From a virus (lineage: Duplodnaviria; Heunggongvirae; Uroviricota; Caudoviricetes): a stretch of 17,106 nt of DNA. The DNA lies in IMG/VR virus record IMGVR_UViG_3300042922_001018; one strand, 5' to 3'. The position numbers and the translations under genes are program-made. Below are positions 1 to 12,085 of this stretch, piece after piece. How positions within the stretch are numbered: position 1 is the first letter of the stretch; the number at the start of each line of letters is the position of its first letter. The notes beneath the pieces were generated by a model. The model was given only the letters and a program-made list of their open reading frames with translations. It made no database searches and was not told the origin of the DNA.

Positions 1-1073
1 GCGGCCAGCGCCTCGTGGAAGTCGCCGACCTTGACCAGCACCTTGGCGACGTTCTCCATGTTCTCGGCCGTCGCCATGTTCGTCGCCATGACGATGATGG
101 CGTAGACCTTGTCGGTGGTGAAGTTCTTCCAGTCGAGGGTCTCGTAGGAGCGCAGCACCTCCTCGAACGACGGCAGGTTCAGCGTCTCGTCCCACTGCTT
201 GAACGCGAGCGCCGCATCCTCGCCGACCGTGGCAATCATGGCCTGGTCGCGGGTCGCGCGGTCGGGACCGACAGCGGCCAGCAGACGGAACACGTTCACC
301 CAGGAGCGACGCGAGGGGTACGCGCCGTCGGCCTTGGCGGGGTCCGACGGGACGACGGTGGTCACGATGCCCGTACCCGAGTGGTTGTTGTTCAGGTAGG
401 CAGCGCCACGAGCGAACTCGACGTACTCGGCCTCGGAGGCCTGCTTGCCGAAGTTCTGCGGCAGGAGGCGAAGCCACTGCTCGACGGGCACCTCGAAGTC
501 GATGTGGATGAGACGGTTCGCCATCGGCGGCGCGATGTACTGGCCGTTCGCGCCGGTCGTGACCGGGTTCGCCGCGAGGATGATGTGCACGTTGTCCGGG
601 AGGCTGATGCCGTCCAGACGACGGTCCTGGATGAACGAGAGAAGCGCGGCCTGCACGTCCTCCAGCGTCGAACGGAACTCGTCGAAGAAGAGGATGACGC
701 CGTCGTAGGAGCGGCCGGTGCCCTCCAGCGGCTCGCCGTCGAGGTCGAGGTCGTAGACCATCCCGCCCTTGGCGATGGCGACCGCGTCGCGGAACCAGTC
801 GGGCTTCGTCGTGATGGTGTACGGCATGTGGAGCGGCTTGCCGTCCTTGTCCGTGTGCTTCACGATGGGCAGACCCTCGACGAACGCGGGGTCTTTGCGG
901 CCACCGATGATGTCGATGACGTAGAAGTTGTGACGCTCGGCGAGGTCGCGAACCGAAGCGGTCTTGCCGATGCCGGGGTCACCGTTCAGGAGCGGAGCGA
1001 GGCCCGCGTTGAGCGCGCCCATGATGAGCTTGTCCTGCGTGGTGTCGTCGGCGGCTGCGATGAGCTTGGACAT
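1..1073 (-). CDS. MoxR-like AAA+ ATPase, 3' end runs off the window
   Basis: Not in the ORF track; translated by hand: MSKLIAAADDTTQDKLIMGALNAGLAPLLNGDPGIGKT. Walker A GDPGIGKT, Walker B ILFFDEF, sensor-1 ILAANP, Arg-finger PPMANRL. ATG at 1073 preceded by GAAGGGA RBS. No stop seen before base 1. Confidence 0.9.
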   Translation of the reverse strand, partial: MSKLIAAADDTTQDKLIMGALNAGLAPLLNGDPGIGKTASVRDLAERHNFYVIDIIGGRKDPAFVEGLPIVKHTDKDGKPLHMPYTITTKPDWFRDAVAIAKGGMVYDLDLDGEPLEGTGRSYDGVILFFDEFRSTLEDVQAALLSFIQDRRLDGISLPDNVHIILAANPVTTGANGQYIAPPMANRLIHIDFEVPVEQWLRLLPQNFGKQASEAEYVEFARGAAYLNNNHSGTGIVTTVVPSDPAKADGAYPSRRSWVNVFRLLAAVGPDRATRDQAMIATVGEDAALAFKQWDETLNLPSFEEVLRSYETLDWKNFTTDKVYAIIVMATNMATAENMENVAKVLVKVGDFHEALA

Positions 1074-1109
1074 GATGATGTTCCCTTCAATCTGGCCCAG
1101 AGGCCGTTT

Positions 1110-1155
1110 GCTTGCTGACACCTTGAAGGTAGCATGCCCCGAAACGCCATGTCAA
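1110..1155 (-). promoter_or_regulatory. Sigma70/SigA-type promoter of the ATPase, with GTGTCAGCAAGC motif
   Basis: Minus strand: TTGACA (1155-1150), 18 nt, TGC-TACCTT (-10 at 1131-1126), 4 nt, GTGTCAGCAAGC (1121-1110). T-rich tract upstream of the -35. Confidence 0.75.
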
Positions 1156-1197: not shown

Positions 1198-2259
1198 TCA
1201 GCCCAAGGACTGCACCGCTGCGACGACCTGCTCCTGAGTGATACCCGCGGGCAAGGAGATGGTGGGAACAGAACCAGGAGAGGTCATCGTCCGAGTCTCC
1301 AGCCGCGAAGCTGAAGCGTTCTCTGGACCGGCCCACGAGTGGCGCAGAACACCGCTGCTCGCAGTGCCACCATCGAAGAACTGGTACGACGTGTTCTCCC
1401 GCTCGAACAGGACATTGCTCATCACCATCTCGGTGGCTGATGTGTTGCTTGTACGGCGAAGGTGCATGTTGCCCTTCACGCTGCCTGACAGCGTGACATC
1501 CATGCTCACGCGCGCGGTCTCGCCCGGTGCAAGAGCGATGTTGGTGCCGTTACGGCCTGCGGGAACCCAGTCGCCTGAGACGTAGAAGTTGTACGCGGAG
1601 GTGACGGTGGACGTGTTCGTCACGTCCGCACTAATGGAGTACGCACCTGGACCGGCGTAGTCCAACGCCCCAGACATCTCGACGACGGCAGTGCCGTTCC
1701 CTGCGTTGTTCGTACGGGCGACCCGTACGCCGTCCGGAGCCGTGGAGATGACCGCGCTGTTAGACGGTACATAGCCCGCATCAGACACCGGCCCTGTACC
1801 GATAGGATTCGTGGAGAGGTTCGTACGCTCCAGTGTCCAGCCGGTGTAAGAGCCGTTCGAAGCTTCCGCAATCGAGGAGGACTCAGACGTGCGGATGAAC
1901 ACACTTCCGGATGCGGACTTCGTCGCAGCTACCCAACCATCCGGGGATGTCAGAAGCTCGAAGCGGTTACCGTCCGTAGGCGTGAACCCGATGGACGAAG
2001 AGCGCAACCCGTTCAGGTCTGCCGCGTAGCTATCACGTTCAGCAAGGTACGCGGCCTGAGCTGTGGCGACACGGTCGAGGTCACCCTTCGCGTTCAGGTC
2101 ATTCGCGTTCGCGATGAAGCCGCTGATGGCGAAGGAACCGCCAACGAGTAGGATGAGGGTAATCGCAATACCCGCGATGATGAGGATGGGGTCAGTCGCG
2201 CCGCGCTCTTCGCGCAACCGCTCGATTTCAGCCTTCTTGGCCTTCAACTTGTCCAGCAA
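1198..2259 (-). CDS. Long type IV pilin-like protein with variable C-terminal insert (left triplet, third gene; 353 aa)
   Basis: Basic leader ending EERG, hydrophobic ATDPILIIAGIAITLILLVGGSF, then AKGDLDRVATAQAAY. Insert bracketed by TNLSTNP and FFDG...WAGPENASAS. TTG start 1 nt after the upstream stop; the nearest in-frame upstream stop is 5 codons away, so the start is constrained. Confidence 0.75.
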   Translation of the reverse strand: MLDKLKAKKAEIERLREERGATDPILIIAGIAITLILLVGGSFAISGFIANANDLNAKGDLDRVATAQAAYLAERDSYAADLNGLRSSSIGFTPTDGNRFELLTSPDGWVAATKSASGSVFIRTSESSSIAEASNGSYTGWTLERTNLSTNPIGTGPVSDAGYVPSNSAVISTAPDGVRVARTNNAGNGTAVVEMSGALDYAGPGAYSISADVTNTSTVTSAYNFYVSGDWVPAGRNGTNIALAPGETARVSMDVTLSGSVKGNMHLRRTSNTSATEMVMSNVLFERENTSYQFFDGGTASSGVLRHSWAGPENASASRLETRTMTSPGSVPTISLPAGITQEQVVAAVQSLG

Positions 2260-2260
2260 C

Positions 2261-2827
2261 TCAGTTTCCGTTCACTCGGTCGAAAGCGTTCTGCACCCAG
2301 GACCATGCAGCCCCACCCATTGACGTAGCCTGCGTCTGGAGACCAGCCGGAAGCGGGTCGGGGAGGTTCGGTCCGGTTCCCAGGGAGAAGATGGTCGTGC
2401 TCGTAGACAAGCGCACGAATACCTCGCCGGATGCAGACTTGACCACAGCACCCCAACCGGCGGTACCACCCGTACCAAAGCCGGTAGAGATGATGGGGAG
2501 GCCCGCCGTTGGCGTGAAGCCGAGAGTCGAGTTCTGGAGGGTAGTGGTCGTAGCGCCAGTCGGGATGTTCACGCGCAAGGCGCCGTAGCTGTCGCGCTCG
2601 GTCATGTACGCAGCCTGGGCGGTCGCGATGCGGTCGAGGTCGCCCTTCGCGTTGAGGTTGTTCGCGTTCGCGATGAAGCCGGAGACGGCGAAGGAGCCAC
2701 CGACGAGCAGGATGAGCGTGATGGCGATACCCGCGATGATGAGGATGGGGTCCGTCGCGCCGCGCTCCTCGCGGAGGCGATTCAGGTCGGCACGAAGGCG
2801 CGCCAAGTCGGGGAGTTTGGAAGTCAT
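2261..2827 (-). CDS. Short type IV pilin-like protein (left triplet, middle gene; 188 aa)
   Basis: Leader ending EERG, ATDPILIIAGIAITLILLVGGSF, AKGDLDRIATAQAAY, compact globular part with no insert. Confidence 0.8.
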   Translation of the reverse strand: MTSKLPDLARLRADLNRLREERGATDPILIIAGIAITLILLVGGSFAVSGFIANANNLNAKGDLDRIATAQAAYMTERDSYGALRVNIPTGATTTTLQNSTLGFTPTAGLPIISTGFGTGGTAGWGAVVKSASGEVFVRLSTSTTIFSLGTGPNLPDPLPAGLQTQATSMGGAAWSWVQNAFDRVNGN

Positions 2828-2843
2828 GTATTCAAGTGTATCG
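2828..2843 (-). promoter_or_regulatory. -10 element for probable leaderless transcript of the short pilin
   Basis: CGA-TACACT-TGAATAC-ATG. 2823-2843 matches 8583-8603 at 20 of 21 nt. No clear -35. Confidence 0.7.
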
Positions 2844-2870
2844 AATCGAGAGCCGGAACCCGACCCAATG

Positions 2871-2914
2871 GAGAGAGGGCATCCCCGCGCTGTATCGCGG
2901 GGATGCCCTCTCTC
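2871..2914 (-). terminator. Intrinsic terminator-like hairpin after the long pilin at 2925-4169
   Basis: Perfect 19-bp stem GAGAGAGGGCATCCCCGCG / CGCGGGGATGCCCTCTCTC with 6-nt loop, 10 nt past the stop codon. No U-tract, which is common in Actinobacteria. Confidence 0.8.
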
Positions 2915-2924
2915 GGTTGGGGAG

Positions 2925-4169
2925 TTACTGCATCAGAGCGGCGACTTCAGCTCCGAAAGCGTCCCAGTCAATGCCCTCTGGGATGGTGAAATCGGACGCC
3001 ATCGTGAGGCCACCCGGCGTGGAGTACGAAGAACGAGACTCCAGGATGGAAACGGTCTGTCCGGGCGTGCCAGCCCACTTGCCGCGGTACTGCCAGTTGG
3101 GGTCAACCCAGGCGCCCTGACCGTACGCCCCGACGCTGTCACCGCTGAACCAGTCGCCGCTGGCGCTCTTCTGGAGCACGAAGTTGTCGTACTTCAGCGG
3201 CACCGCGGTGGTACCGGCAAGAAGCTTCAGGCTCGTGAAGTTGGTTGCACCGGCCGGAACCGTGGTGAAGTTCATGTTCGGTTCGGCGTGAATCGGCAGG
3301 ACAACCTTGTGTGTACCAGCCTGGTTCGGGATGGTGCGGCTCTGAGTGTAGGTGAAGTTTCCGCCGTTACGAAGCATGTGCGACGTTCCGACAGTGAGAG
3401 TCGCGCCCGCGCCTGGGACCGGGGCGTCCAGCGTGACGTTGAACGAGAGGTTCAGCAGGTCGCGTGTGCCCCAGATAGCCGGGTTCATCTCGTGGAGGGT
3501 AGACCAGCCACGAACACCAGAGTCGTTTACGAACAGGCTGGAGACATCGAAGGTTCCCGTGTTTACGGCGCCAGTGCTGCGAGCGTTCAGCTTCCAGTTG
3601 CCCCCGGCGTCCTGCGTACGGGTCACGGTGGTGCCTGTGTTGGTCGTGATGCCGTCAACCACATCGTACGTCAGGTCAGGATTCGCGAAGTAGTTCTTGC
3701 TCTGCTCGTCCCAGACTCCCCAGACGGTCTGCGCCGCGGAAAGCTGAGGCTCCGCCGGGGCGGTGGTCTCGGAAGAACGGACGAACACCTTGCCACTGGC
3801 GGAACGCGTCGCCGCGACCCAACCGGTTTCAGCTACCTGGACGACGGTGTCGTTGCCGTCGGTCGGAGTGAACCCGATGTCAGAGTCTTCGAGACTACGG
3901 TCCTCATAGTCTTCGCCGAATCGAGGACCGACACGGTAAGGCGCGTACGCGTCTTTCGTCGCGAGGTGGGCGGCTTCAGCGGTTGCGATACGGTCAAGGT
4001 CGCCCTTGGCGTTCACGTCGTGTGCGTTGCCGATGAAGCCGGAAACCGCGAAAGAACCACCCACGATGAGGATGAGGGTAATCGCGATACCGGCGATGAT
4101 GAGGATAGGGTCAGTTGCGCCGCGCTCACCCATGAGACGGCGCGCGGAAGGGGAGGATTTCTTAGCCAT
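2925..4169 (-). CDS. Long type IV pilin-like protein with variable C-terminal insert (left triplet, first gene; 414 aa)
   Basis: MAKKSSPSARRLMGERG|ATDPILIIAGIAITLILIVGGSF...AKGDLDRIATAE. Insert bracketed by KNYFANP and WFSGD...WAGTPG. Start moved from 4259 to 4169 because TAGAAT lies 7 nt upstream. Confidence 0.78.
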   Translation of the reverse strand: MAKKSSPSARRLMGERGATDPILIIAGIAITLILIVGGSFAVSGFIGNAHDVNAKGDLDRIATAEAAHLATKDAYAPYRVGPRFGEDYEDRSLEDSDIGFTPTDGNDTVVQVAETGWVAATRSASGKVFVRSSETTAPAEPQLSAAQTVWGVWDEQSKNYFANPDLTYDVVDGITTNTGTTVTRTQDAGGNWKLNARSTGAVNTGTFDVSSLFVNDSGVRGWSTLHEMNPAIWGTRDLLNLSFNVTLDAPVPGAGATLTVGTSHMLRNGGNFTYTQSRTIPNQAGTHKVVLPIHAEPNMNFTTVPAGATNFTSLKLLAGTTAVPLKYDNFVLQKSASGDWFSGDSVGAYGQGAWVDPNWQYRGKWAGTPGQTVSILESRSSYSTPGGLTMASDFTIPEGIDWDAFGAEVAALMQ

Positions 4170-4243
4170 ATGGTCCATTCTACCTAGCGGTTCTCCGAAA
4201 AGTGGTCGCGTCCCAATGTCGTAAGTCCACGATACAATGGAGC
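4170..4243. promoter_or_regulatory. Divergent promoter region with two -10 elements
   Basis: Minus: TAGAAT (4182-4177), 7 nt, ATG 4169. Plus: TACAAT (4233-4238), 5 nt, ATG 4244. Confidence 0.65.
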
Positions 4244-4924
4244 ATGACCGAATCCACATCTACCTTCACTGTTACCGCCGACGCCGAACGCCACATCCGC
4301 GCTGAGCGCGCCACCATCCGCGCCCGCATCTCTGCTCGCTCCGAACACAGCAAGGACGAGGCTTACAACGCGGTTCAGGCCGTCCACAGCCGCCTCGAAG
4401 CGCAGGCGCGCGCCTTCCGCCAGGGAGGTCACGCCGCCCCCGCGACATGGCATCACGCGAGCGCCCCGTCCTCGTACAGCATCCGCGAAGAGTTCAAGGG
4501 CGACGACAAGGAGATTCAGTCCCGGACCGTGTTCATCACCGCGTCCGTCGTGACGGTCAAGTTCCAGAACTTCGAGACGATGTCCGACTGGCTCGCGGAG
4601 CTGGCCGGAGAGACGCTGGTCGCCTCGCTCACACCCGAGTGGACCCTCACTGAGAAGACACGCAAGGATGCAGAGTCCGGCGTCCGCACGCAGGCTGTGA
4701 AGAACGCACGCGCCTATGCGGCCGACTTCGCAGCCGGAGACGACATCGACGCGTCTGCTCTTCGTCTCGTGAGCGTAGACGCATCCGTGAAGACAGGCTA
4801 CCCCTACGCCGCGGCTGGTGCAACTCGCGGTTCCGCTGGGGGCAGCGCGGCCTTCGCCGTGACCCCGAATGAGGTTACCGTCTCCGCGTCTGTCACAGCC
4901 ACCTTCGAGACGACTGAGGTCTGA
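4244..4924 (+). CDS. SIMPL/DUF541-like protein (226 aa)
   Basis: Pattern recalled for SIMPL proteins: FTVTADAERHIRAERATI, WTLT...RTQAVKNARAYAA, VTPNEVTVSASVTATF. Start moved from 4202 to 4244 (after TACAAT). No signal peptide apparent. Confidence 0.7.
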   Translation: MTESTSTFTVTADAERHIRAERATIRARISARSEHSKDEAYNAVQAVHSRLEAQARAFRQGGHAAPATWHHASAPSSYSIREEFKGDDKEIQSRTVFITASVVTVKFQNFETMSDWLAELAGETLVASLTPEWTLTEKTRKDAESGVRTQAVKNARAYAADFAAGDDIDASALRLVSVDASVKTGYPYAAAGATRGSAGGSAAFAVTPNEVTVSASVTATFETTEV

Positions 4925-4926
4925 GC

Positions 4927-5187
4927 ATGATGCCTGACCCTACCCGCGTGACCGGCGCTTTCACCGCTGCCACTGTCGCAGACGCATCCGCCGAACGTGA
5001 TGTTGTCGAGATGCTCATGCAGCGCGCGGGGTTCGATGTGGACTCGTTCCAGGTGACCGGCAAGGGCAAGCTCGTTGAGTTCTCCGCTGTCGGCGACGAC
5101 GCGCCCGTGCAGCGTATCCGCGAGATGCTCAGCGGCCGGGCCTTCCGCTATCCCGGACTCTGGACGCGCGTCGAGTCTGTGCGCTAA
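4927..5187 (+). CDS. Hypothetical protein (86 aa), possible ferredoxin/ACT-like alpha-beta fold
   Basis: Starts 2 nt after the SIMPL stop, GC3-rich codons, alternating strand/helix pattern by eye. Fold is a guess. Confidence 0.7.
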   Translation: MMPDPTRVTGAFTAATVADASAERDVVEMLMQRAGFDVDSFQVTGKGKLVEFSAVGDDAPVQRIREMLSGRAFRYPGLWTRVESVR

Positions 5188-5194
5188 CCAGGCG

Positions 5195-5216
5195 TACAAT
5201 GGACGGTGATTGGAGG
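5195..5216 (+). promoter_or_regulatory. -10 element and Shine-Dalgarno for a small ORF
   Basis: TACAAT 5195-5200; GGAGG 5212-5216, 6 nt before ATG 5223. Confidence 0.65.
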
Positions 5217-5222
5217 TTCACT

Positions 5223-5264
5223 ATGTGCACTGACTGTCCCTGCGGCGGCGCTTGCGGCTGCTGA
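5223..5264 (+). CDS. Candidate 13-aa Cys-rich peptide MCTDCPCGGACGC
   Basis: ATG TGC ACT GAC TGT CCC TGC GGC GGC GCT TGC GGC TGC TGA. Own -10, well-spaced GGAGG, terminator hairpin begins 8 nt after the stop. Confidence 0.6.
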   Translation: MCTDCPCGGACGC

Positions 5265-5271
5265 GATAACG

Positions 5272-5308
5272 CGAAGCGCCCCGGCTCTCGATGAGCCGGG
5301 GCGCTTCG
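5272..5308. terminator. Probable bidirectional terminator between convergent genes
   Basis: Perfect 16-bp stem CGAAGCGCCCCGGCTC / GAGCCGGGGCGCTTCG, 5-nt loop, between stops at 5264 (+) and 5321 (-). Confidence 0.85.
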
Positions 5309-5320
5309 TCGTAGGGAGCC

Positions 5321-6823
5321 TCAGCGGCGTCCGGTGAACACGTCCCCATCGGGAGCATCACGCAGGTCCACGCGGACGGTGATGTCTTTCAGGTGGGCCG
5401 GAATCTGGTCAGCGGCCTGCGCGTCGTAGTCCGACCCGATGAGAGCGGCGATGATGAAGCGCGTCTTGCCCTCTGCGAGAAGCGACTCGTACTCCTGCTC
5501 GCTCGGCCACGGCGTCTGCGAGTCCGTGAAGAGGATACCCACGTCCACACCGAGTTCGGCCAGACGGCGGAAGCCGACGCGCATGTCCGTGCCGCCGCCA
5601 CCTTCGAGGCGGACCCGGTCGGAAGCCCGCCGAAGCCGCTGAACCTCGGCGACCTCCGTGTCCACCGTGAAGAACTGGAGTTCCTTGATGCCAGCGACGC
5701 GGAGCATCGCGAACACCTCAGTGAGCGCACCGGGGATGTTCCCCAGGTTCGAGCCGGAGTTGTCCAGCGCCGCCGCCGCCGTGAGCTGCGAGTCGTTCCA
5801 CTGGGGGACGATGAGGTCAGCGACCGGCTGACGACGAGCCGCCTTGCGACGGTTGATGGTCTTGTAGCCGCGACGGTACTTGACTGCCGTGTGGATGAGC
5901 GCACGGAACACGTCCTGCCAGCGCACACGCGGCGGGGCGAGAACCACGTCCGCCCACTCCAGGAGAGTGCCGGGAAGCGTGCCGATGCCGTTCGAGGAGG
6001 ACTTCTGCGACTGCTCGCGGATGCGCTTCGCGACCTCGCGCTTCATGAACTCGCGGTCGGTCTCGCTCCACTCAGGGGTCTCGCCGTCGGCGTTGCCCTC
6101 GACCTCGTACTGGCGCTTCTGACCACCAGCGCCGGAACCGCACTCGCCCTCGCCGGGCTTGCCGTCCTGGCCCTGGGCGTCGCCCTGACCGCCGCCCTGG
6201 CCCTGCTGGTCCTGGTCGCCCTTGCCACCACCCTGACCCTGCGAGTCGCCCTGGTCGCCCTGCTGGCCCTGACCGCCACCCTGACCCTGGTCCTGACCCT
6301 GGCCGCTCTGACCCTGCTTGCCGCCCTGCTGCTTCTGGTCCTGGAGGTTGTTGTAGTACCACTCCGCCGTCTTGCCGTCGGGGAAGACCGTGCCGGTCTC
6401 GTCCTTGAAATGCTTCGGGTAGAGAATGTCGGTCATCGACTTCACGAAACGCTGCGGCAGAGCCGTGTTGATTTCGAGGTCACCGGCCTTGTTCCACTTG
6501 TCGAAGTCGCGAACGTCCGTGTGCTTCGCACGCTTGGCGTGGTGGCGCAGAACGTGCCAGACCTCGTGAACGAGGGCACCAGCGGCCCAGTCGAGGTCGC
6601 GCGTCATGCAGTAGTCGAAGTTGATGTAGACGCGGCCACGGTCGTCCACGGCCATCGCCCAGAGACCCTGGCCCTGAGCGACAGGGACGACGCTGAGCTT
6701 GAAGATGGCGGGAGCGAGGTACGGGGCGCCCATGTCGGATGCCTGACCGGAAGCGTTGAGCGTCGCGCGCAGACGCACGCGGTCGTACCACTTCTTCTGC
6801 TCGGTGGTGAGCTTTGCGACCAT
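5321..6823 (-). CDS. Putative metallopeptidase-VWA protein (DUF2201-like; 500 aa)
   Basis: N-terminal HEXXH (LVHEVWHVLRHH), Gln/Gly-rich linker, C-terminal VWA with MIDAS-like LDNSGS and GGGTD. Start moved to ATG 6823 behind a GAAGGGA RBS. Confidence 0.85.
   Translation of the reverse strand: MVAKLTTEQKKWYDRVRLRATLNASGQASDMGAPYLAPAIFKLSVVPVAQGQGLWAMAVDDRGRVYINFDYCMTRDLDWAAGALVHEVWHVLRHHAKRAKHTDVRDFDKWNKAGDLEINTALPQRFVKSMTDILYPKHFKDETGTVFPDGKTAEWYYNNLQDQKQQGGKQGQSGQGQDQGQGGGQGQQGDQGDSQGQGGGKGDQDQQGQGGGQGDAQGQDGKPGEGECGSGAGGQKRQYEVEGNADGETPEWSETDREFMKREVAKRIREQSQKSSSNGIGTLPGTLLEWADVVLAPPRVRWQDVFRALIHTAVKYRRGYKTINRRKAARRQPVADLIVPQWNDSQLTAAAALDNSGSNLGNIPGALTEVFAMLRVAGIKELQFFTVDTEVAEVQRLRRASDRVRLEGGGGTDMRVGFRRLAELGVDVGILFTDSQTPWPSEQEYESLLAEGKTRFIIAALIGSDYDAQAADQIPAHLKDITVRVDLRDAPDGDVFTGRR
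6122..6343 (-). repeat. Low-complexity Gln/Gly/Asp linker in the VWA gene
   Basis: QDQKQQGGKQGQSGQGQDQGQGGGQGQQGDQGDSQGQGGG..., built from imperfect CAGGGC/CAGGGT repeats. Confidence 0.8.
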
Positions 6824-6841
6824 GATGGGTTCCCTTCGGAG

Positions 6842-6886
6842 GCTTGCTGACACTCAGAGCGTATCAGGTCCGTTCGGGGCTGTCAA
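6842..6886 (-). promoter_or_regulatory. Sigma70/SigA-type promoter of the VWA gene, with GTGTCAGCAAGC motif
   Basis: TTGACA (6886-6881), 17 nt, TGA-TACGCT (-10 at 6863-6858), 4 nt, GTGTCAGCAAGC (6853-6842). Confidence 0.8.
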
Positions 6887-6893
6887 CCCTCGG

Positions 6894-8063
6894 TCACTGT
6901 TTGACTTCAGAAGCGTCCCCAGCGACCTCGGCCCACGTGATACCGGCCGGGAGAGTAATGCCGCTCGGCTGAGCCATCAGAATCGGTCGAGTGTACTTGA
7001 TTGAGGCTGAGGCGTTCGCAGCTCCTGCCCATCCATACGATGTAGGACCGGAAGCAACCGATGCACCGCTGAACCATTCGCGGCTGCTGTCGTACGCTCC
7101 AACGTACATGTTGACAGAAGACATCTCAATGGTCTGTCCGACGGTCAGGTTGCCCACGAAGAAGTTGATGCGAGATGACGTACCGTAATCCGCTTCCGAC
7201 ATGACGAACGTTGCGTACGCAGTGAGCGTCGTATTGGCGGGGACGGTCTGGGCCTGCGTTGCGGCGATGGCGGAACGAGAAGAACCAGCAGACGATACCG
7301 GGATGATGCTGTGCAGCGCGAACGGCGCCGGGGAACGGAGCTGGACCACGATAGTGACTGTCTCCCCCACAAGCGGCGTGCCCGCAGCGGCAGCCTGCTG
7401 GAAGGAAGTGTAGATGCGTGGCTGGAAAGCGAACTGGCGGACAGGCTGTGTACCCACCGCGGATAGGGTGGTCTGAAGAGCACGACCAGATGGCGCCCAT
7501 GGGGCAGCTACCGCGGCCGTCCCAGTCACGGTAGCGCTCGATACGACGCCCGTCGTCAGGTCAGTCGTCGTCGAGGCGCCGGGGTTCCGGAAGAGGTTTC
7601 GGTCGCTTTCGACCGGCGCGCCGTACTGCGGATTCGCGACATCCGGGCTAAGCTCATGGTTCTTGTCAGAGGTGGAAGTGCGGAGGTAGACATTCCCTGA
7701 GCCGGACCCGGCGACGGCAGCCCAACCGGAAGGCGATGAACGCACCTTCAGGTTCACGCTCTCGCTAGGCGAGAAGCTGGCCGCGGAGTCAATCAGCTCG
7801 GTGTTCGGCACTGCCACATCCGGGCCTACAGCGAGCGAGGCATACCGGTCGTTCTCAGAGATGTAGTGCCCCTGAGCGGTAGCTACGCGGTCAAGGTCAC
7901 CGCGCGCAGCCTGGTTGTCTGCGTAGGCAATGAACCCGCCGATGGCGAAGGTTCCACCCACAAGCATGATGAGACTGACAGCGATGCCGACGATGACCAG
8001 AATCGGGTCAGCCGCACCACGGTCATCGGCCGCGCGAAGGCGCAGCTTCTCCAGTGTCCTCAT
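6894..8063 (-). CDS. Long type IV pilin-like protein with variable C-terminal insert (right triplet, third gene; 389 aa)
   Basis: DDRG|AADPILVIVGIAVSLIMLVGGTF...ARGDLDRVATAQ. Insert bracketed by RNLFRNPG and WFSG...WAGAANASASIK. Ends LPAGITWAEV...EVKQ. Confidence 0.78.
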   Translation of the reverse strand: MRTLEKLRLRAADDRGAADPILVIVGIAVSLIMLVGGTFAIGGFIAYADNQAARGDLDRVATAQGHYISENDRYASLAVGPDVAVPNTELIDSAASFSPSESVNLKVRSSPSGWAAVAGSGSGNVYLRTSTSDKNHELSPDVANPQYGAPVESDRNLFRNPGASTTTDLTTGVVSSATVTGTAAVAAPWAPSGRALQTTLSAVGTQPVRQFAFQPRIYTSFQQAAAAGTPLVGETVTIVVQLRSPAPFALHSIIPVSSAGSSRSAIAATQAQTVPANTTLTAYATFVMSEADYGTSSRINFFVGNLTVGQTIEMSSVNMYVGAYDSSREWFSGASVASGPTSYGWAGAANASASIKYTRPILMAQPSGITLPAGITWAEVAGDASEVKQ

Positions 8064-8071
8064 CTGCTGAC

Positions 8072-8587
8072 TCAGAAGCCCTTGACGCGGGCCATCGCTG
8101 ATGTCACCCAGCTACCAGTGATTCCGGTTCCGGCGAGAACCACACCCTCCGGTACGACTGAACGGTCCGTCGTACCGATGATTTGGGAGGATGCCGACGT
8201 ACGAATGAACATCTCACCTGTCGGCGAGAGGGTCACAGCCGCCCACCCCGTCGCTGTCGCATTGACGATGATGGGATTGTCGGCGGTTGGGGTGAAACTG
8301 ATGGACGAGTTCTGAAGGTCGGTCTCGACGGTTCCTGGGTTCGCGATGTTCAGCCTCAGGCTAGCGTATCGGTCCTTCTCCGCGTAGAACGCGGCCTGTG
8401 CAGTCGCGATGCGGTCGAGGTCGCCCTTCGCGTTCAGGTTGTTCGCGTTTCCGATGAAACCGGAGATGGCGAAGGAGCCACCCACGAGCAGGATGAGCGT
8501 GATTGCGATACCCGCAATGATGAGGATAGGGTCGGTGGCACCGCGCTCTTTTTGGGCACGGCGCAGAAGAGTAAGCAGCCGGGTCAT
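8072..8587 (-). CDS. Short type IV pilin-like protein (right triplet, middle gene; 171 aa)
   Basis: KERG|ATDPILIIAGIAITLILLVGGSF...AKGDLDRIATAQAAFY; no insert. Confidence 0.8.
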   Translation of the reverse strand: MTRLLTLLRRAQKERGATDPILIIAGIAITLILLVGGSFAISGFIGNANNLNAKGDLDRIATAQAAFYAEKDRYASLRLNIANPGTVETDLQNSSISFTPTADNPIIVNATATGWAAVTLSPTGEMFIRTSASSQIIGTTDRSVVPEGVVLAGTGITGSWVTSAMARVKGF

Positions 8588-8635
8588 GTATTCAACTGTA
8601 TCGGCTTGTCCTCCGAATAGTGGACACGCCGATAC
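8588..8635 (-). promoter_or_regulatory. -10 element of the short pilin overlapped by an imperfect hairpin
   Basis: CGA-TACAGT-TGAATAC-ATG. Inverted repeat GTATCGGCTTGTCC (8598-8611) / GGACACGCCGATAC (8622-8635), 13 of 14 pairs, 10-nt loop. Confidence 0.65.
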
Positions 8636-8657
8636 TCACAGCTTCCCGCGTCAGCGG

Positions 8658-9830
8658 TTACTGCTTCACCTCAGCGATGTCTGTCATCACGTCGCTCCAC
8701 ACGATGCCGTCCGGCAGGACGAAACCGGTAGGCGCCGAAGAGACCGCCTGGAGCGTGCTCTTGATAGACGCTGAAGCGTTCGGAGTACCCGCCCAGGAAT
8801 AGGAGTCATCGCCCGCTGCGGCAGTCGCACCGTTGAACCATGTCCGGGATGCGTCATAATCGCCCCTGTAGATGTCGATGGCACTCAGCTCGATGTTCTG
8901 AGCCGCTGTGGACGAAGCTGTGAGCGTCAAGCTGAAACGTGAGGTTGGGCCTACACTAGCGGCGTCCAGGGTAAACGTGGCGTAGACCGTCTTCGTCGTG
9001 TTAGCGGAGGAGGTGCCGTCGCCGCCTTTCGTAACAGTCACGGTTCCTCCTGCGGCGTCGAAAACGTTGATAGCGGACGAGAGACCGGCAGCGTTGGTTC
9101 GAAGCTGCATCGCGACAGTAACGCGTTGTCCTTCAAGCGGTGTTCCCGCAGCCGCAGCAGCCTGATACGTCGGCTGAAGATTGAATGCGAAGTTCGACAA
9201 AGCGGGCACACCGCCGTTCCGTGGACCCAATGCCATCCGGTATGCAGAACCAGACGGCGACCAAGCCGCGGCTACATTTGAAACGGCGAATGGCCGCTTG
9301 TTAGGTGCCGTTCCTAGCGTGTCGAAAGAGAAGTCTGAAGTAGAAGTGGCGCCCGAGTTCAGGGAGAAGTTACGAGCAGATTCGACAGGGACTCTGGTAC
9401 CGGACCCAGCCGCATCGTGCTTGTGAATCGTGGAAGACTCTGAGGTGCGCAGGAACACATCGCCTGTCGATGAGCCAGCTACAGCCGCCCAACCTGCGTC
9501 CGACGTGCGGACCTTCACGTTTGTATCGGCGCTCGGCGTAAAGCCGATGCTGCCGTTCGACAGCTCAGTGTTCTGCGTCGTGATGTCCGGACCGACGGCG
9601 AGAGCGCCATACCGGTCGTTCTCGCTCATGAACGCACCCTCCGCAGTAGCCACGCGGTCAAGGTCACCCTGCGCGTTGAGGTTCTTGGCGTTCCCGATGA
9701 AGCCGGACACGGCGAAGGAGCCGCCCACGATGAGGATGAGGGTGATGGCGATACCCGCGATGATGAGGATAGGGTCAGTAGCACCCCGCTCCTTTTCGGC
9801 GCGGCGGAAAGCGGTCGAGAGAGTGGTCAT
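8658..9830 (-). CDS. Long type IV pilin-like protein with variable C-terminal insert (right triplet, first gene; 390 aa)
   Basis: KERG|ATDPILIIAGIAITLILIVGGSF...AQGDLDRVATAE. Insert bracketed by RNFSLNSG and WFNG...WAGTPNASASIK. Ends LPDGIVWSDV...EVKQ. Confidence 0.78.
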   Translation of the reverse strand: MTTLSTAFRRAEKERGATDPILIIAGIAITLILIVGGSFAVSGFIGNAKNLNAQGDLDRVATAEGAFMSENDRYGALAVGPDITTQNTELSNGSIGFTPSADTNVKVRTSDAGWAAVAGSSTGDVFLRTSESSTIHKHDAAGSGTRVPVESARNFSLNSGATSTSDFSFDTLGTAPNKRPFAVSNVAAAWSPSGSAYRMALGPRNGGVPALSNFAFNLQPTYQAAAAAGTPLEGQRVTVAMQLRTNAAGLSSAINVFDAAGGTVTVTKGGDGTSSANTTKTVYATFTLDAASVGPTSRFSLTLTASSTAAQNIELSAIDIYRGDYDASRTWFNGATAAAGDDSYSWAGTPNASASIKSTLQAVSSAPTGFVLPDGIVWSDVMTDIAEVKQ

Positions 9831-9913: not shown

Positions 9914-10768
9914 TCAGTGCTTTTCGAGCTGGTTCTGCATCTGAGCGAACCAGGAATGCATCGCCTCTTCGGATGCTTCCCCAACACCCCAGAACGCTTC
10001 CGTATCGAAGGTACGACGGCCGCAACGGATACGAACATCCGGAGCTGAAGGATTGAAGCTATCACGGAGCACCCGGTATGATGCGCGGAGCGCTTCCTGG
10101 AGAGACTCGAAGTAGGCCAGCTTCGTCTGCGGGTACTCTCCACGAAGGTCTTCGACGGTTACCCACTTGCCGTGACGGAACACGCTCACGTTCGCGACGG
10201 TGTCCGATGCATAGATGAGCGCCTGCTCCACATCGTTCACGTAGAAACGGGCTGCCTTGCTCATCTTGGTCAGAAGCAGCTCATGGTAGTTCATCTCGAC
10301 CGCGAGCTTGGCGCCCTTCTTCACGGCGAGCATCAGACCCTCTTTGTACTCGTTCGCGAACCAGAGGTCTGTGAACCCGTAACCGAGCATGTCGGTCTCG
10401 TCAGGCATCACGCTCTCCTGAACGATTTCCGCCTTCGAGTCACCCGTATCCTCATCGAAGATGAAGCGGATAGCCGCAGGCACCGGCTGGTCATGGGCCT
10501 CATACACGTCGAGGAGCTGAAGTGCGAGGTAGTCGAACTTCGTGAGGAACTCTCGCGTGTCCTCGTCCGGGATGTATGCGTTCGCGGCCTTGCCCAGCGT
10601 GAACGGGTCCACGATGATTTCTTCCACCCTGAACGCAACACTCGCGCCGCGCCAGTTCGTCTCGTTCATCACGTAGACGTACGTCTTGTCAGCGGCTCCC
10701 AGCGTGTGCAGATGGATGACCTCAGAGAGGCTCTCCAATGTCGCGTAGAAGTCCCGCTGGAAGGTCAC
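9914..10768 (-). CDS. Hypothetical protein (284 aa); N-half resembles YezG/DUF600-like immunity proteins
   Basis: GTG start overlaps the dsbA stop (GTGA). ORF is solid. Family guess rests on recalled patterns: ADKTYVYV, HDQPVPAAIRFIFDEDTG, C-terminal DLWF. Confidence 0.45.
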   Translation of the reverse strand: MTFQRDFYATLESLSEVIHLHTLGAADKTYVYVMNETNWRGASVAFRVEEIIVDPFTLGKAANAYIPDEDTREFLTKFDYLALQLLDVYEAHDQPVPAAIRFIFDEDTGDSKAEIVQESVMPDETDMLGYGFTDLWFANEYKEGLMLAVKKGAKLAVEMNYHELLLTKMSKAARFYVNDVEQALIYASDTVANVSVFRHGKWVTVEDLRGEYPQTKLAYFESLQEALRASYRVLRDSFNPSAPDVRIRCGRRTFDTEAFWGVGEASEEAMHSWFAQMQNQLEKH

Positions 10769-11469
10769 TGTCCCAGCCAGCCCTGGATGTCAGTCTCCGG
10801 GTTGCCCGAACGGTTCACGGCTTCGCCGTTGATGGTGACCGTCGGCGTAGACACCCCGGTAGCACCCTCAGGAATGGGCGTCGTGCGGACCGCGTTACGA
10901 ACATACTTCGTCCACGCGTCGATGTCATCTTCGGAGATAGTCGCGCCGAGGTCGGCAGCGAGCGCTACCAGCTCTTCGTTCGAGAAACCAGGGCTTCCTT
11001 CGCTCGGCTGGTTCGCGTAGAGGTTCTCGACGTAGTCAGCGGTAGCGTCCGGGGAGGCAACCGCAACCGCGTAGATGCTGGCCGAGGAACGAGTGCTGTA
11101 CTCGGTCCCCTGTGACATGCGGTCCAGGATGCTGATGGGGTGGAACTTCAGGCCGAACTCGTCATTCTCCATGATGAGCGGGGTGTAGTTCTCCTCGAAG
11201 TCGCGGCACGCCGGGCACATCGGGTCGATGTAGACACCAACCTCCGTGGGTCCGTCCTTGACGACGATGCCACCGTCTTCCTGGATGACACTTGAACCGG
11301 CAGCAGCGTCAGGAAGCCGGGCAGGACCACCGGCCTGGCCGTTCACCCACACGACCAGTGCGACGAGCGCGAGAATGACAACGACGGCTGCGGTGGTTAC
11401 CCACACTGCAAACGACGGCCCCTTCTTCTGGGGGATGACGACCGGGGGTTTCTTGTTCTTCTTAGCCAT
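10765..11469 (-). CDS. dsbA: Membrane-anchored DsbA-family thiol-disulfide oxidoreductase (234 aa)
   Basis: Basic N-terminus plus one TM helix, YIDPMCPAC active site, FHPISILDR...YSTR motif typical of actinobacterial DsbA, cis-Pro loop STPT. Confidence 0.88.
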   Translation of the reverse strand: MAKKNKKPPVVIPQKKGPSFAVWVTTAAVVVILALVALVVWVNGQAGGPARLPDAAAGSSVIQEDGGIVVKDGPTEVGVYIDPMCPACRDFEENYTPLIMENDEFGLKFHPISILDRMSQGTEYSTRSSASIYAVAVASPDATADYVENLYANQPSEGSPGFSNEELVALAADLGATISEDDIDAWTKYVRNAVRTTPIPEGATGVSTPTVTINGEAVNRSGNPETDIQGWLGQ

Positions 11470-11476
11470 TGAGATT

Positions 11477-11496
11477 CTCCTGCGTCCAGTGTACCA
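11477..11496 (-). promoter_or_regulatory. Extended -10 promoter and RBS of dsbA
   Basis: TGG-TACACT (11496-11488); AGGAG (11481-11477) 7 nt before ATG. Confidence 0.6.
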
Positions 11497-11521
11497 TGCG
11501 GCCTCAGGACTCAGCCCACGC

Positions 11522-12085
11522 TCAATACCCGCCGACGGTTCCGAAGCGGTTCAACGGCCAGTAGCGGAAGTAGGCTACGCCCTTGATGTCTTCAGCGGAT
11601 ACGAACCCGTGCTCACGGCTGTCCGAAGACTCCGGACGGTTGTCGCCGAGTACCCAGTACATGCCTTCCGGAACCACCACAGAATAATCGTCGTTCTCGT
11701 TGATGGCGTATGGCTCCTCGGTGAAGATGCCGTTGAGTACCAGCTCGCCGTTGACGTAATCGACTTGGTCGCCGGGGATGCCGATGACTCGCTTGACGTA
11801 GTTGTTGCCGCTGCCCCACCCGTCCGTGACCACGATGTCGCCTCGTTTCGGGTCAGCGAGGCTGTTCGTCAGGAGGGCATCGCCTTCGATGAGCGTCTGC
11901 TCCATCGAGTGTTGCTCGACGATGTAGCCGGAGGCTGTCGTCTCACGCAGCATGAAGCCCGTGAGGACCATCGTCACGAGAAGAGCAGGAACGACCCACA
12001 GAAGCCGTCGGTAGCGTTTCCGCGCACGACGATAGTCAGAGAGGCCACGCCTAGTTGACGTAACCGAGAGGGTGCCAACGGACAT
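11522..12085 (-). CDS. lepB: Signal peptidase I (S26; 187 aa)
   Basis: One TM helix, catalytic Ser in HSMEQTL, catalytic Lys in YVKRVIGIPGD, GDNRPESSDSR box. AGGAGG upstream. Confidence 0.92.
   Translation of the reverse strand: MSVGTLSVTSTRRGLSDYRRARKRYRRLLWVVPALLVTMVLTGFMLRETTASGYIVEQHSMEQTLIEGDALLTNSLADPKRGDIVVTDGWGSGNNYVKRVIGIPGDQVDYVNGELVLNGIFTEEPYAINENDDYSVVVPEGMYWVLGDNRPESSDSREHGFVSAEDIKGVAYFRYWPLNRFGTVGGY

Follow-up and report, generated by a model that had tools for sequence, protein, structure and literature searches.

Modular pilins, in which a type IV pilin carries a module that is not specific to pili, are widespread: more than 1200 proteins in 264 architectures have been described, including lectin modules and modules that resemble carbohydrate-binding modules (CBMs) (PMC8179133). 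The stretch of DNA analyzed here, termed the window, comprises 17,106 nucleotides (nt) with about 62% guanine plus cytosine (GC). It is deposited as virus record IMGVR_UViG_3300042922_001018 and is equivalent to about 58-79 kb on a metagenomic contig of 450,372 bp (JGI 3300042934). The element carrying the window is giant, actinobacterial and plasmid-like. Its minus strand encodes six pilin paralogues in the window, four long (A, C, D and F) and two short (B and E), and the gene calls of the JGI contig agree with these open reading frames (ORFs). To our knowledge, few modular pilins have been characterized, and nearly all known ones are terminal fusions. The long genes of the window quite probably encode modular type IV pilins with an inserted CBM-like jelly roll of the phage-tail type, displaying putative adhesive heads.

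In Streptococcus sanguinis, the pilins PilB (vWA) and PilC (immunoglobulin-like plus lectin) present a bulky module of non-pilus nature on a monoderm host, as the long pilins would do here (PMC8179133, PMC9934059). PilC binds glycans with a beta-sandwich lectin module; the window proteins have a predicted CBM-like jelly roll, which may bind sugars. The small, non-modular PilA partners and stabilizes the modular pilin (PMC9934059), a role with a parallel, seen at the level of the genes, in the coupled pairs of short and long genes described below. The modules of S. sanguinis are a galectin-like lectin or a vWA domain, grafted at the C-terminal end via a short loop, and the genes form one chromosomal operon. 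In contrast, the module here is a phage-tail subtype of the CBM4/22-type jelly roll; according to the models it is inserted, and the chain finishes the pilin with its own last helix. Many paralogues are located on a giant mobile element, and their leader lacks Glu5.

An extra domain within the pilin fold is known from GspK and from Thermus ComZ, and such subunits are thought to reside at the filament tip (PMC8179133). GspK is among the structural matches of short pilin E (Z 5.7). Unlike in GspK, the insert of the long pilins is a predicted beta-jelly roll placed after the last strand, with clear relatives outside pilus biology. These relatives are modules of actinophage tails (PHROGs 14138, 27130, 33 and 7455), which agree in profile, bracket motifs and predicted fold, and whose host group, the Micrococcales, matches the likely host of the element. 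Phages use the module in tail, Dit, fibre and major tail proteins, usually in 2-12 tandem copies, whereas a single copy is located inside each long pilin. The beta-jelly-roll is likewise that of CBM4, CBM22 and CBM27 (PF02018). PF02018 recognizes some of the tail copies and terminal modules of Curtobacterium pilins, whereas the window modules stay below the Pfam threshold and have no enzyme attached. The thin pilus of the IncI1 plasmid R64 is a type IV pilus; variants of the C-terminal adhesin part of PilV set the recipient specificity via shufflon DNA inversion of one gene. The present element resembles R64 in being plasmid-like and in encoding type IV pilins with alternative, putative adhesin variants. 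Here, the variants are separate, long-diverged genes, and a role in transfer would be hypothetical.

Type IV pilin scaffold

The six window proteins have their first ~140 residues in common, with 45 invariant columns including the junction R-G-A-x-D-P-I-L. The AlphaFold2 model of short pilin E, calculated from 40 homologues, consists of a helix (residues 20-71), a four-strand head (strands 106-139) and a final helix (158-168). In a scan of 48,161 solved chains, performed independently of Foldseek, 16 of the 17 best matches to this model were type IV pilins or pseudopilins. Thermus PilA4 was the top match (Z 9.7, root mean square deviation (rmsd) 3.0, 120 of 125 residues); Foldseek also ranked PilA4 first, at a weak E of 0.05. 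The model of long pilin D aligned with PilA4 over 119 residues (Z 9.9, rmsd 2.6). The models show the lollipop shape of pilins, an N-terminal helix of ~50 residues and a small antiparallel beta-sheet head.

After the leader of 15-20 amino acids (aa), which ends with R-G, come A-T-D-P and a tract of over 21 uncharged residues. The junction residues R, G, A, T, D, P, I and L are invariant or nearly so among the 40 homologues, and the leader fits the definition of class III signal peptides (PMC9934059). At ~341-363 kb, the same contig harbors genes for a type II secretion system (T2SS) platform protein (T2SSF) and a prepilin peptidase (Peptidase_A24); seven short paralogues come directly after these genes. 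The element probably has its core pilus locus in this region. On contig section L006 (962-11073, ~341-362 kb), three large ORFs of 584, 1099 and 1362 aa without a Pfam match are located after the seven short paralogues. The only cultured relatives are Curtobacterium megaplasmids of 546-607 kb. In Curtobacterium pS16, a homologue adjoins genes for a prepilin peptidase, a T2SS F protein and three ATPases of the T2SS/type IV pilus kind. Curtobacterium relatives are the likely host of the element. Predicted fold, the layout of the signal peptide, and the prepilin peptidase and platform genes of the contig identify the six paralogues as type IV pilins. In the phage collection, neither megablast with the whole window nor tblastn with short pilin E gave a match, and a scan of viral contigs with short pilin E yielded no confirmed relative.

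Phage-tail module in the long pilins

The sequence-only reading of the window had described a variable, phage-tail-like cassette inside each long pilin. Its four intervals are in frame and cover aa 145-318 in A, 161-377 in C, 155-354 in D and 153-355 in F, i.e. 174-217 extra aa. The opening motif was located where it had been claimed, as TNLSTNP (A), KNYFANP (C), RNLFRNP (D) and RNFSLNS (F). The closing motifs were likewise at the positions given: FFDG, WFSG, WFSG and WFNG occur in A, C, D and F, and WAG in all four, while the final ASAS is present in A, D and F and replaced by TVS in C. The chain resumes with PxG, i.e. LPAG, IPEG, LPAG and LPDG in A, C, D and F, ~17-20 aa before the stop; LPAG is also found in B and VPEG in E. 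The insert is real, but the proposed limits were slightly too narrow. According to profile and model, the module starts ~4-7 aa earlier and ends ~6-8 aa later, which gives a length of ~185-230 aa.

An exhaustive search of 1.84 billion representative proteins was run with a module profile built from ten pilin inserts. The profile matched 1203 proteins at E<=1e-3, 271 of which reached E<=1e-10, and most of the matched proteins had 2-12 matched stretches. Non-pilin proteins matched down to E 1e-42, and 162 near-full-length matches were obtained in 146 proteins. A modular pilin is defined by an N-terminal pilin part and a module that is not pilus-specific; the present module is common to the 1203 proteins, which are mostly non-pilin. 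The closing bracket was evaluated in 404 module copies from the 146 proteins and revealed the conserved residues F (93%), G (98%), W (96%), G (92%), S (94%) and S (93%). In the 122 copies that include the opening bracket, the first N was found in 122, the second N in 98 (80%) and P in 120. Conservative changes aside, the four window modules have all of the key bracket residues. Judged by sequence, the bracket motifs reflect homology and not chance, because the same positions are nearly invariant in the profile-matched modules.

Tail proteins of phages are prominent among the carriers. Eleven of 14 sampled profile matches also matched tail PHROGs (14138 minor tail, 27130 tail, 33 Dit, 7455 and 1887), matches that may partly stem from the module itself. 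Independent tail parts were found in P0104, which starts with a major tail protein (phrog_2645, 5e-87), and in P0120, which ends with phrog_1887 (1e-100). In the tail proteins, tandem copies of ~200 aa abut directly. Cultured-phage matches of the inserts comprise Megan gp31, Kozie gp33, Pumpernickel gp95 and ArV1 gp34. The insert of A matched the minor tail protein gp31 of Microbacterium phage Megan in tblastn (E 9e-5, 98% of the insert), whose gene directly follows the tape measure gene. The insert of D matched a tail protein of Arthrobacter phage ArV1 that adjoins baseplate J. The sole PHROG model matching window proteins was phrog_7455, weakly, with E 0.0077 on D. PF02018 (CBM_4_9) gave no match on the window proteins, its gathering score not being reached; it is significant in several carriers and overlaps the module copies in P0018, P0019 and P0027. 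The window modules are divergent relatives of CBM_4_9 and not recognized members. A sequence search of the PDB with the module profile yielded chance-level matches only (E 0.27 or worse). The module is a subtype which is repeated by phages of Micrococcales in minor tail, Dit-like and fibre proteins.

The AlphaFold2 model of long pilin D, based on ten homologues, comprises a helix (20-71), strands (77-138), a beta module (151-358) and a helix (377-388). Foldseek against the PDB matched the D module to CBM4, CBM22, CBM11, CBM16 and CBM27 with E 1.6e-7 and weaker and probability 1.0. CBM4 3k4z (E 1.6e-7) and CBM22 4xuo (E 1.2e-6) stood out, the CBM4/CBM22 matches ranging to 1e-5, and the tailspike TSP4 of phage CBA120 was matched as well. 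The scan of solved chains returned CBM22 1h6x (Z 11.0, rmsd 3.5, 150 residues, model residues 150-327), CBM27 1of3 (Z 10.6) and CBM4 3k4z (Z 10.2). Sequence identity of the window modules to solved CBMs is 8-17%. In BFVD, a collection of predicted viral structures, the best matches were minor tail proteins from phages of Arthrobacter, Microbacterium and Brevibacterium (E 4e-9 to 1e-7), together with proteins that bear the name CBM-CenC. The module fold is predicted to be a CBM4/CBM22-type beta-jelly-roll, as the sequence-only reading had anticipated for structure prediction and fold search of an insert. The insert behaves as an autonomous domain, being a beta-sandwich in the D model and a recurring ~200-aa unit in tail proteins. 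That reading had also connected the bracket motifs with minor tail proteins of actinophages and with galactose-binding-like modules, a connection that holds with Megan gp31, ArV1, the tail PHROGs, the BFVD matches and the CBM folds; the expected matches to phage tail proteins were found with the insert sequences (Megan gp31, ArV1).

Insertion into the pilin fold

A 24-column profile of the last residues of long pilins matched 16 of 77 module-free short pilins at E<=0.01, always at most 14 residues from the C-terminus. The best matches reached 8e-11, and P0172 from the same contig 9e-10. Among the controls, one of 1540 shuffled and none of 77 reversed sequences matched. The proposed alignment of the PxG segment with short pilins is borne out by these matches at the extreme C-terminus, with controls near nil. 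The short pilins of the window, B and E, had no significant match to the tail profile (E 1.9 and 8.1); they have a longer tail of another subtype. Their tail correspondence to the long pilins comprises (L/V)PxG and a predicted final helix only, which for E is seen in the model.

The module is carried by 37 of 60 long proteins with this scaffold, and 34 of these 37 end with the conserved tail. This C-terminal pilin segment is absent between the abutting modules of phage tail proteins. P0132, a database protein of 362 aa, is a canonical type IV pilin of another lineage with a leader of the A-F-T-L-L-E type. It carries the module as a C-terminal fusion and ends right after N-A-S-T-S. Pilins therefore captured the module independently at least twice, in two topologies. 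The models of long pilin D and short pilin E contain the same scaffold elements in the same order, with a final helix in both; helix 377-388 of D corresponds to helix 158-168 of E. PilA4 superposes on residues 15-384 of the long model and on residues 16-162 of the short model. In the models, the module occupies the loop that connects the last head strand of the pilin to its final helix, and it is tethered at both ends. The claim of an insertion in the pilin, made against a terminal fusion, stands on the tail profile, the module-free relatives, the contrast with P0132 and the shared final helix. Modular pilins are also described by a C-terminal linker fusion, which is not what is found here: the pilin's own tail follows the module, in a topology as in GspK.

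Divergence and exchange of the heads

The scaffolds of the four long pilins are 40-65% identical, the heads 26-43%, and the head of C is only 26-30% identical to the other three. Pairwise comparison of 30 module-bearing pilins (435 pairs) gave median identities of 64% (scaffold), 29% (head) and 46% (tail), and in 429 pairs the scaffold was better conserved than the head. In the close orthologues D and P0008, the parts are alike in divergence (62% and 63%). A quick maximum-likelihood tree was calculated from 12 pilin heads, one module of a canonical pilin (P0132) and 85 tail modules. The pilin heads appeared in at least four places; the group of D and F was nested with tail modules (SH-aLRT, an approximate likelihood ratio support, of 99), and P0011 belonged to another supported clade. 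Forcing the pilin heads into one clade cost 93 log-likelihood units (approximately unbiased (AU) test, p 0.029). The tree suggests that heads were exchanged with tail proteins more than once, with a marginal AU result and long branches involved, especially that of C.

A recent exchange of DNA cassettes was considered and rejected. The common 5' DNA of the long pilin genes is 62-76% identical, and GC and GC3, the GC content of third codon positions, are similar in module and scaffold for A, C and D, with slightly lower values of both in the F module. The idea of four different receptor-binding heads on one pilin scaffold is to be modified. Divergent heads on pilins are present, yet they belong to one module family and not to four folds, and the scaffolds are paralogous, not identical. 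Cultured Curtobacterium megaplasmids match the scaffold of D only, not its module, and the long Curtobacterium pilins carry other modules, including terminal CBM_4_9 domains. P0276 and P0280, from megaplasmids of Curtobacterium citreum and Curtobacterium sp. MCSS17_016, combine this scaffold with a Pfam-recognized CBM_4_9 as terminal fusion.

Gene organization

The features of the window are listed in Table 1. Short and long genes are tightly coupled, with intergenic gaps of 1 nt (B-A) and 8 nt (E-D) versus 97 nt (C-B) and 70 nt (F-E). A syntenic 20.7-kb contig, L004, keeps exactly the pairs of short and long pilin, each followed by the DUF2201 or the AAA gene. The pair junctions are located at 9997-10001 and 15025-15027 in L004 and at 2259-2263 and 8063-8072 in the window. 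L004 is without F and has a short pilin at the position of C. A long-short-long triplet as conserved unit was ruled out, as L004 retains short and long pairs only; from the synteny, the conserved unit is the pair of a short and a long pilin. The tight coupling suggests a complex of short and long subunits.

Table 1. Features of the window, with positions in nt of the whole stretch
Feature	Position	Strand	Remarks
Long pilin A	1198-2259	-	353 aa; TTG start 1 nt past the stop of B; ORF and JGI call
Parts of long pilin A			scaffold aa 1-141, module 142-324, tail 325-353
Module of A, tail-type, CBM-like	1288-1836	-	tblastn to Megan gp31; module profile match
C-terminal pilin tail of A	1201-1287	-	tail profile 8.2e-10
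Short pilin B	2261-2827	-	188 aa; no module; scaffold aligns; longer tail of the LPAG...WSWV...RVNGN type
Long pilin C	2925-4178	-	417 aa from ATG at 4178; ORF; JGI also 417-aa gene
Module of C, tail-type, CBM-like	3030-3710	-	largest and most divergent; profile 1.5e-53 (C itself a profile row)
C-terminal pilin tail of C	2928-3029	-	tail profile 1.7e-12
Long pilin D	6894-8063	-	389 aa; full-length AlphaFold2 model
Module of D, tail-type, CBM-like	6984-7613	-	CBM22 1h6x, Foldseek CBM4/CBM22 and BFVD minor tail matches
C-terminal pilin tail of D (linker, LPAGITW, final helix)	6897-6983	-	tail profile matches short-pilin C-termini
Short pilin E	8072-8587	-	171 aa; 8 nt upstream of D; AlphaFold2 pLDDT (predicted local distance difference test) 88.8
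Long pilin F	8658-9830	-	390 aa; ORF; 47% identity to D, full length
Module of F, tail-type, CBM-like	8748-9386	-	profile 1e-70 (F itself a profile row); 43% identity to the D head
C-terminal pilin tail of F	8661-8747	-	tail profile 1.9e-14
AAA_5 (MoxR-like) ATPase gene	3-1121	-	after A; closes one pilin group
DUF2201 (metallopeptidase-like and VWA-like) gene	5321-6853	-	after D; closes the other pilin group
SIMPL gene	between the two pilin groups	opposite strand	
dUTPase, S26 signal peptidase and DsbA-like thioredoxin genes	upstream of the pilins		

The AAA_5 and DUF2201 genes, a chaperone-like pair, are 4 kb apart, an arrangement also found in L004. Within the DUF2201 gene, a Gly/Gln/Asp-rich low-complexity stretch (6164-6295) consists of degenerate short DNA repeats and shows weak matches to collagen-like adhesins in NCBIfam. 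The block directly upstream of the pilins (9914-12085, minus strand) encodes a 284-aa protein without family, a DsbA-like thioredoxin whose N-terminus forms a membrane anchor, and an S26 signal peptidase; the block is syntenic in L004. No cysteines for DsbA are present in the four long pilins, in both short pilins or in the heads.

Alternative explanations

Several results speak against modular pilins with an inserted adhesive head. No family of Pfam, NCBIfam or PHROG was significant on the six window proteins. The best sub-significant matches were PilA_Myxo of NCBIfam (1e-4), phrog_7455 (0.0077) and, in Pfam, Pilin_GH or ComP_DUS (0.17); the pilin evidence is therefore structural and contextual. 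Pilin Z-scores of ~10 lie in the range that is reachable by long helices alone. The leader G↓A-T-D-P-I-L (arrow, cleavage site) has Asp at +3 and lacks Glu5, which departs from the canonical G↓(F/M)-T-L-x-E, and N_methyl of Pfam did not match the six proteins. Hence, they are filed under the type 4 filament pilin superfamily and not under the canonical N-methyl subfamily. Assembly genes were not found in the window, the nearest ones found being located ~280 kb away on the contig. Surface lectins, membrane-anchored or secreted with an ordinary signal-anchor and perhaps processed by S26, would account for the missing Glu5, N_methyl match and pilus machinery in the window without any pilus subunits, and an S26 peptidase gene 1.7 kb upstream and a DsbA-like gene are syntenic in the relative L004. 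Such lectins are nevertheless very improbable. The predicted fold is the pilin lollipop, and pilins top the list of structural matches. The near-invariant R-G-A-T-D-P-I-L of the 40 homologues makes a better prepilin peptidase site than an AxA signal-peptidase site, and seven paralogues follow directly after Peptidase_A24/T2SSF on the contig, with a like arrangement in Curtobacterium. The insertion has its own weak points. The D model is of middling confidence (pLDDT 75, predicted template modeling score (pTM) 0.55, ten-row alignment). When the D pilin head (21-147) and the D tail (358-389) were folded as two chains, the result was rated 'weak support', with a score of 0.47 versus 0.01 for the best control, a contact agreement of at least 86% between runs and a partner pLDDT of at least 62. 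Of 80 solved complexes, 58 attained this mark, as did 2 of 110 mismatched pairs; both of these mismatches, but only 7 of the 80 solved complexes, scored 0.60 or less. The two-chain result is no more than a weak pass.

A plain C-terminal fusion as in PilB and PilC of S. sanguinis, the last 25-30 residues being part of the module or a disordered tail, would agree with a MAFFT alignment of the six window proteins, in which the short-pilin tails are placed before the module and not after it, and with the missing tail-profile matches of B and E. An hhalign comparison of the short with the long family reports the first 147 columns only, as a fusion would have it; it is uninformative on the tail, and the dedicated tail profile was used instead. 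With that profile, 16 module-free short pilins are matched at their C-termini (best E 8e-11), and the tail is kept in 34 of 37 module-bearing family members, whereas the modules of tail proteins and P0132 end without it. With a helix predicted there in both models and the weak pass of the two-chain test in addition, a terminal fusion is extremely unlikely. CBM-like jelly rolls also function in protein binding or as purely structural parts, a further point against adhesive heads. A displayed module without an external receptor may bundle pili, contact the own cell wall during extrusion or mask phage receptors of the cell by taking up the wall glycans to which phage tails attach. The many tandem copies in major tail and Dit-like phage proteins, each perhaps adding weak avidity, would suit such a function, and no member has a known ligand. 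It is considered improbable, since the heads diverge far faster than the scaffolds, as is typical of parts facing changing external ligands, and since the lectin- or vWA-bearing pilins that have been characterized act as adhesins (PMC8179133, PMC9934059).

Proposed mechanism

As modular pilins with an inserted head, the long proteins would consist of three parts: a class III signal peptide with the pilin lollipop (long N-terminal helix and small beta-sheet head), the beta-jelly-roll module, and a linker with LPxGI(T/V)W and the final helix as the pilin's own C-terminus. The A24 prepilin peptidase of the element would cut after Gly of R-G↓A-T-D-P-I-L, and the pilus machinery would polymerize the subunits via their N-terminal helices. 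The bulky heads would face outward, most likely in low-abundance or tip subunits, since modular pilins of such bulk presumably have room nowhere else (PMC8179133). We infer sugar binding and a 'receptor-binding' role of the heads from fold and relatives. The heads may bind glycans, most plausibly Micrococcales-type cell-wall glycopolymers or, alternatively, plant polysaccharides. Since phages of Micrococcales use the module in their tails and the relatives of the element occur in Curtobacterium, cell-wall glycopolymers are the most economical guess.

The fast divergence of the heads and their apparent repeated exchange point to an element repertoire of at least nine putative adhesive heads. 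It is conceivable, if rather doubtful, that the element repeatedly swapped receptor-binding modules with phage tails of the same host group and mounts them in its pilins at a single fixed site, that the nine or more heads act as a host-range determinant and that the short and long pairs form an adhesive tip. If so, the pilin heads would choose which recipient or partner cell walls the pilus grips.

Significance

Modular pilins are established and an inserted domain is known in GspK; the general idea is therefore not new. New are the identification of the module as an actinophage tail-protein subtype with a sharp signature, the fixed insertion point established from module-free relatives, and the size of the repertoire; the data also hint at repeated exchange with phages. 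Despite more than 1200 carriers and its sharp sequence signature, the module is without a curated Pfam or PDB entry of its own. A whole pilin family uses one fixed internal insertion point, 37 of the 60 long members carrying the module. The presence of the module in phage tails of the same host group provides a testable guess for the ligand, i.e. cell-wall glycopolymers of Micrococcales. Phage receptor recognition and pilus adhesion would be linked via a common, exchangeable part, and modular pilins explain how simple filaments acquire many functions.

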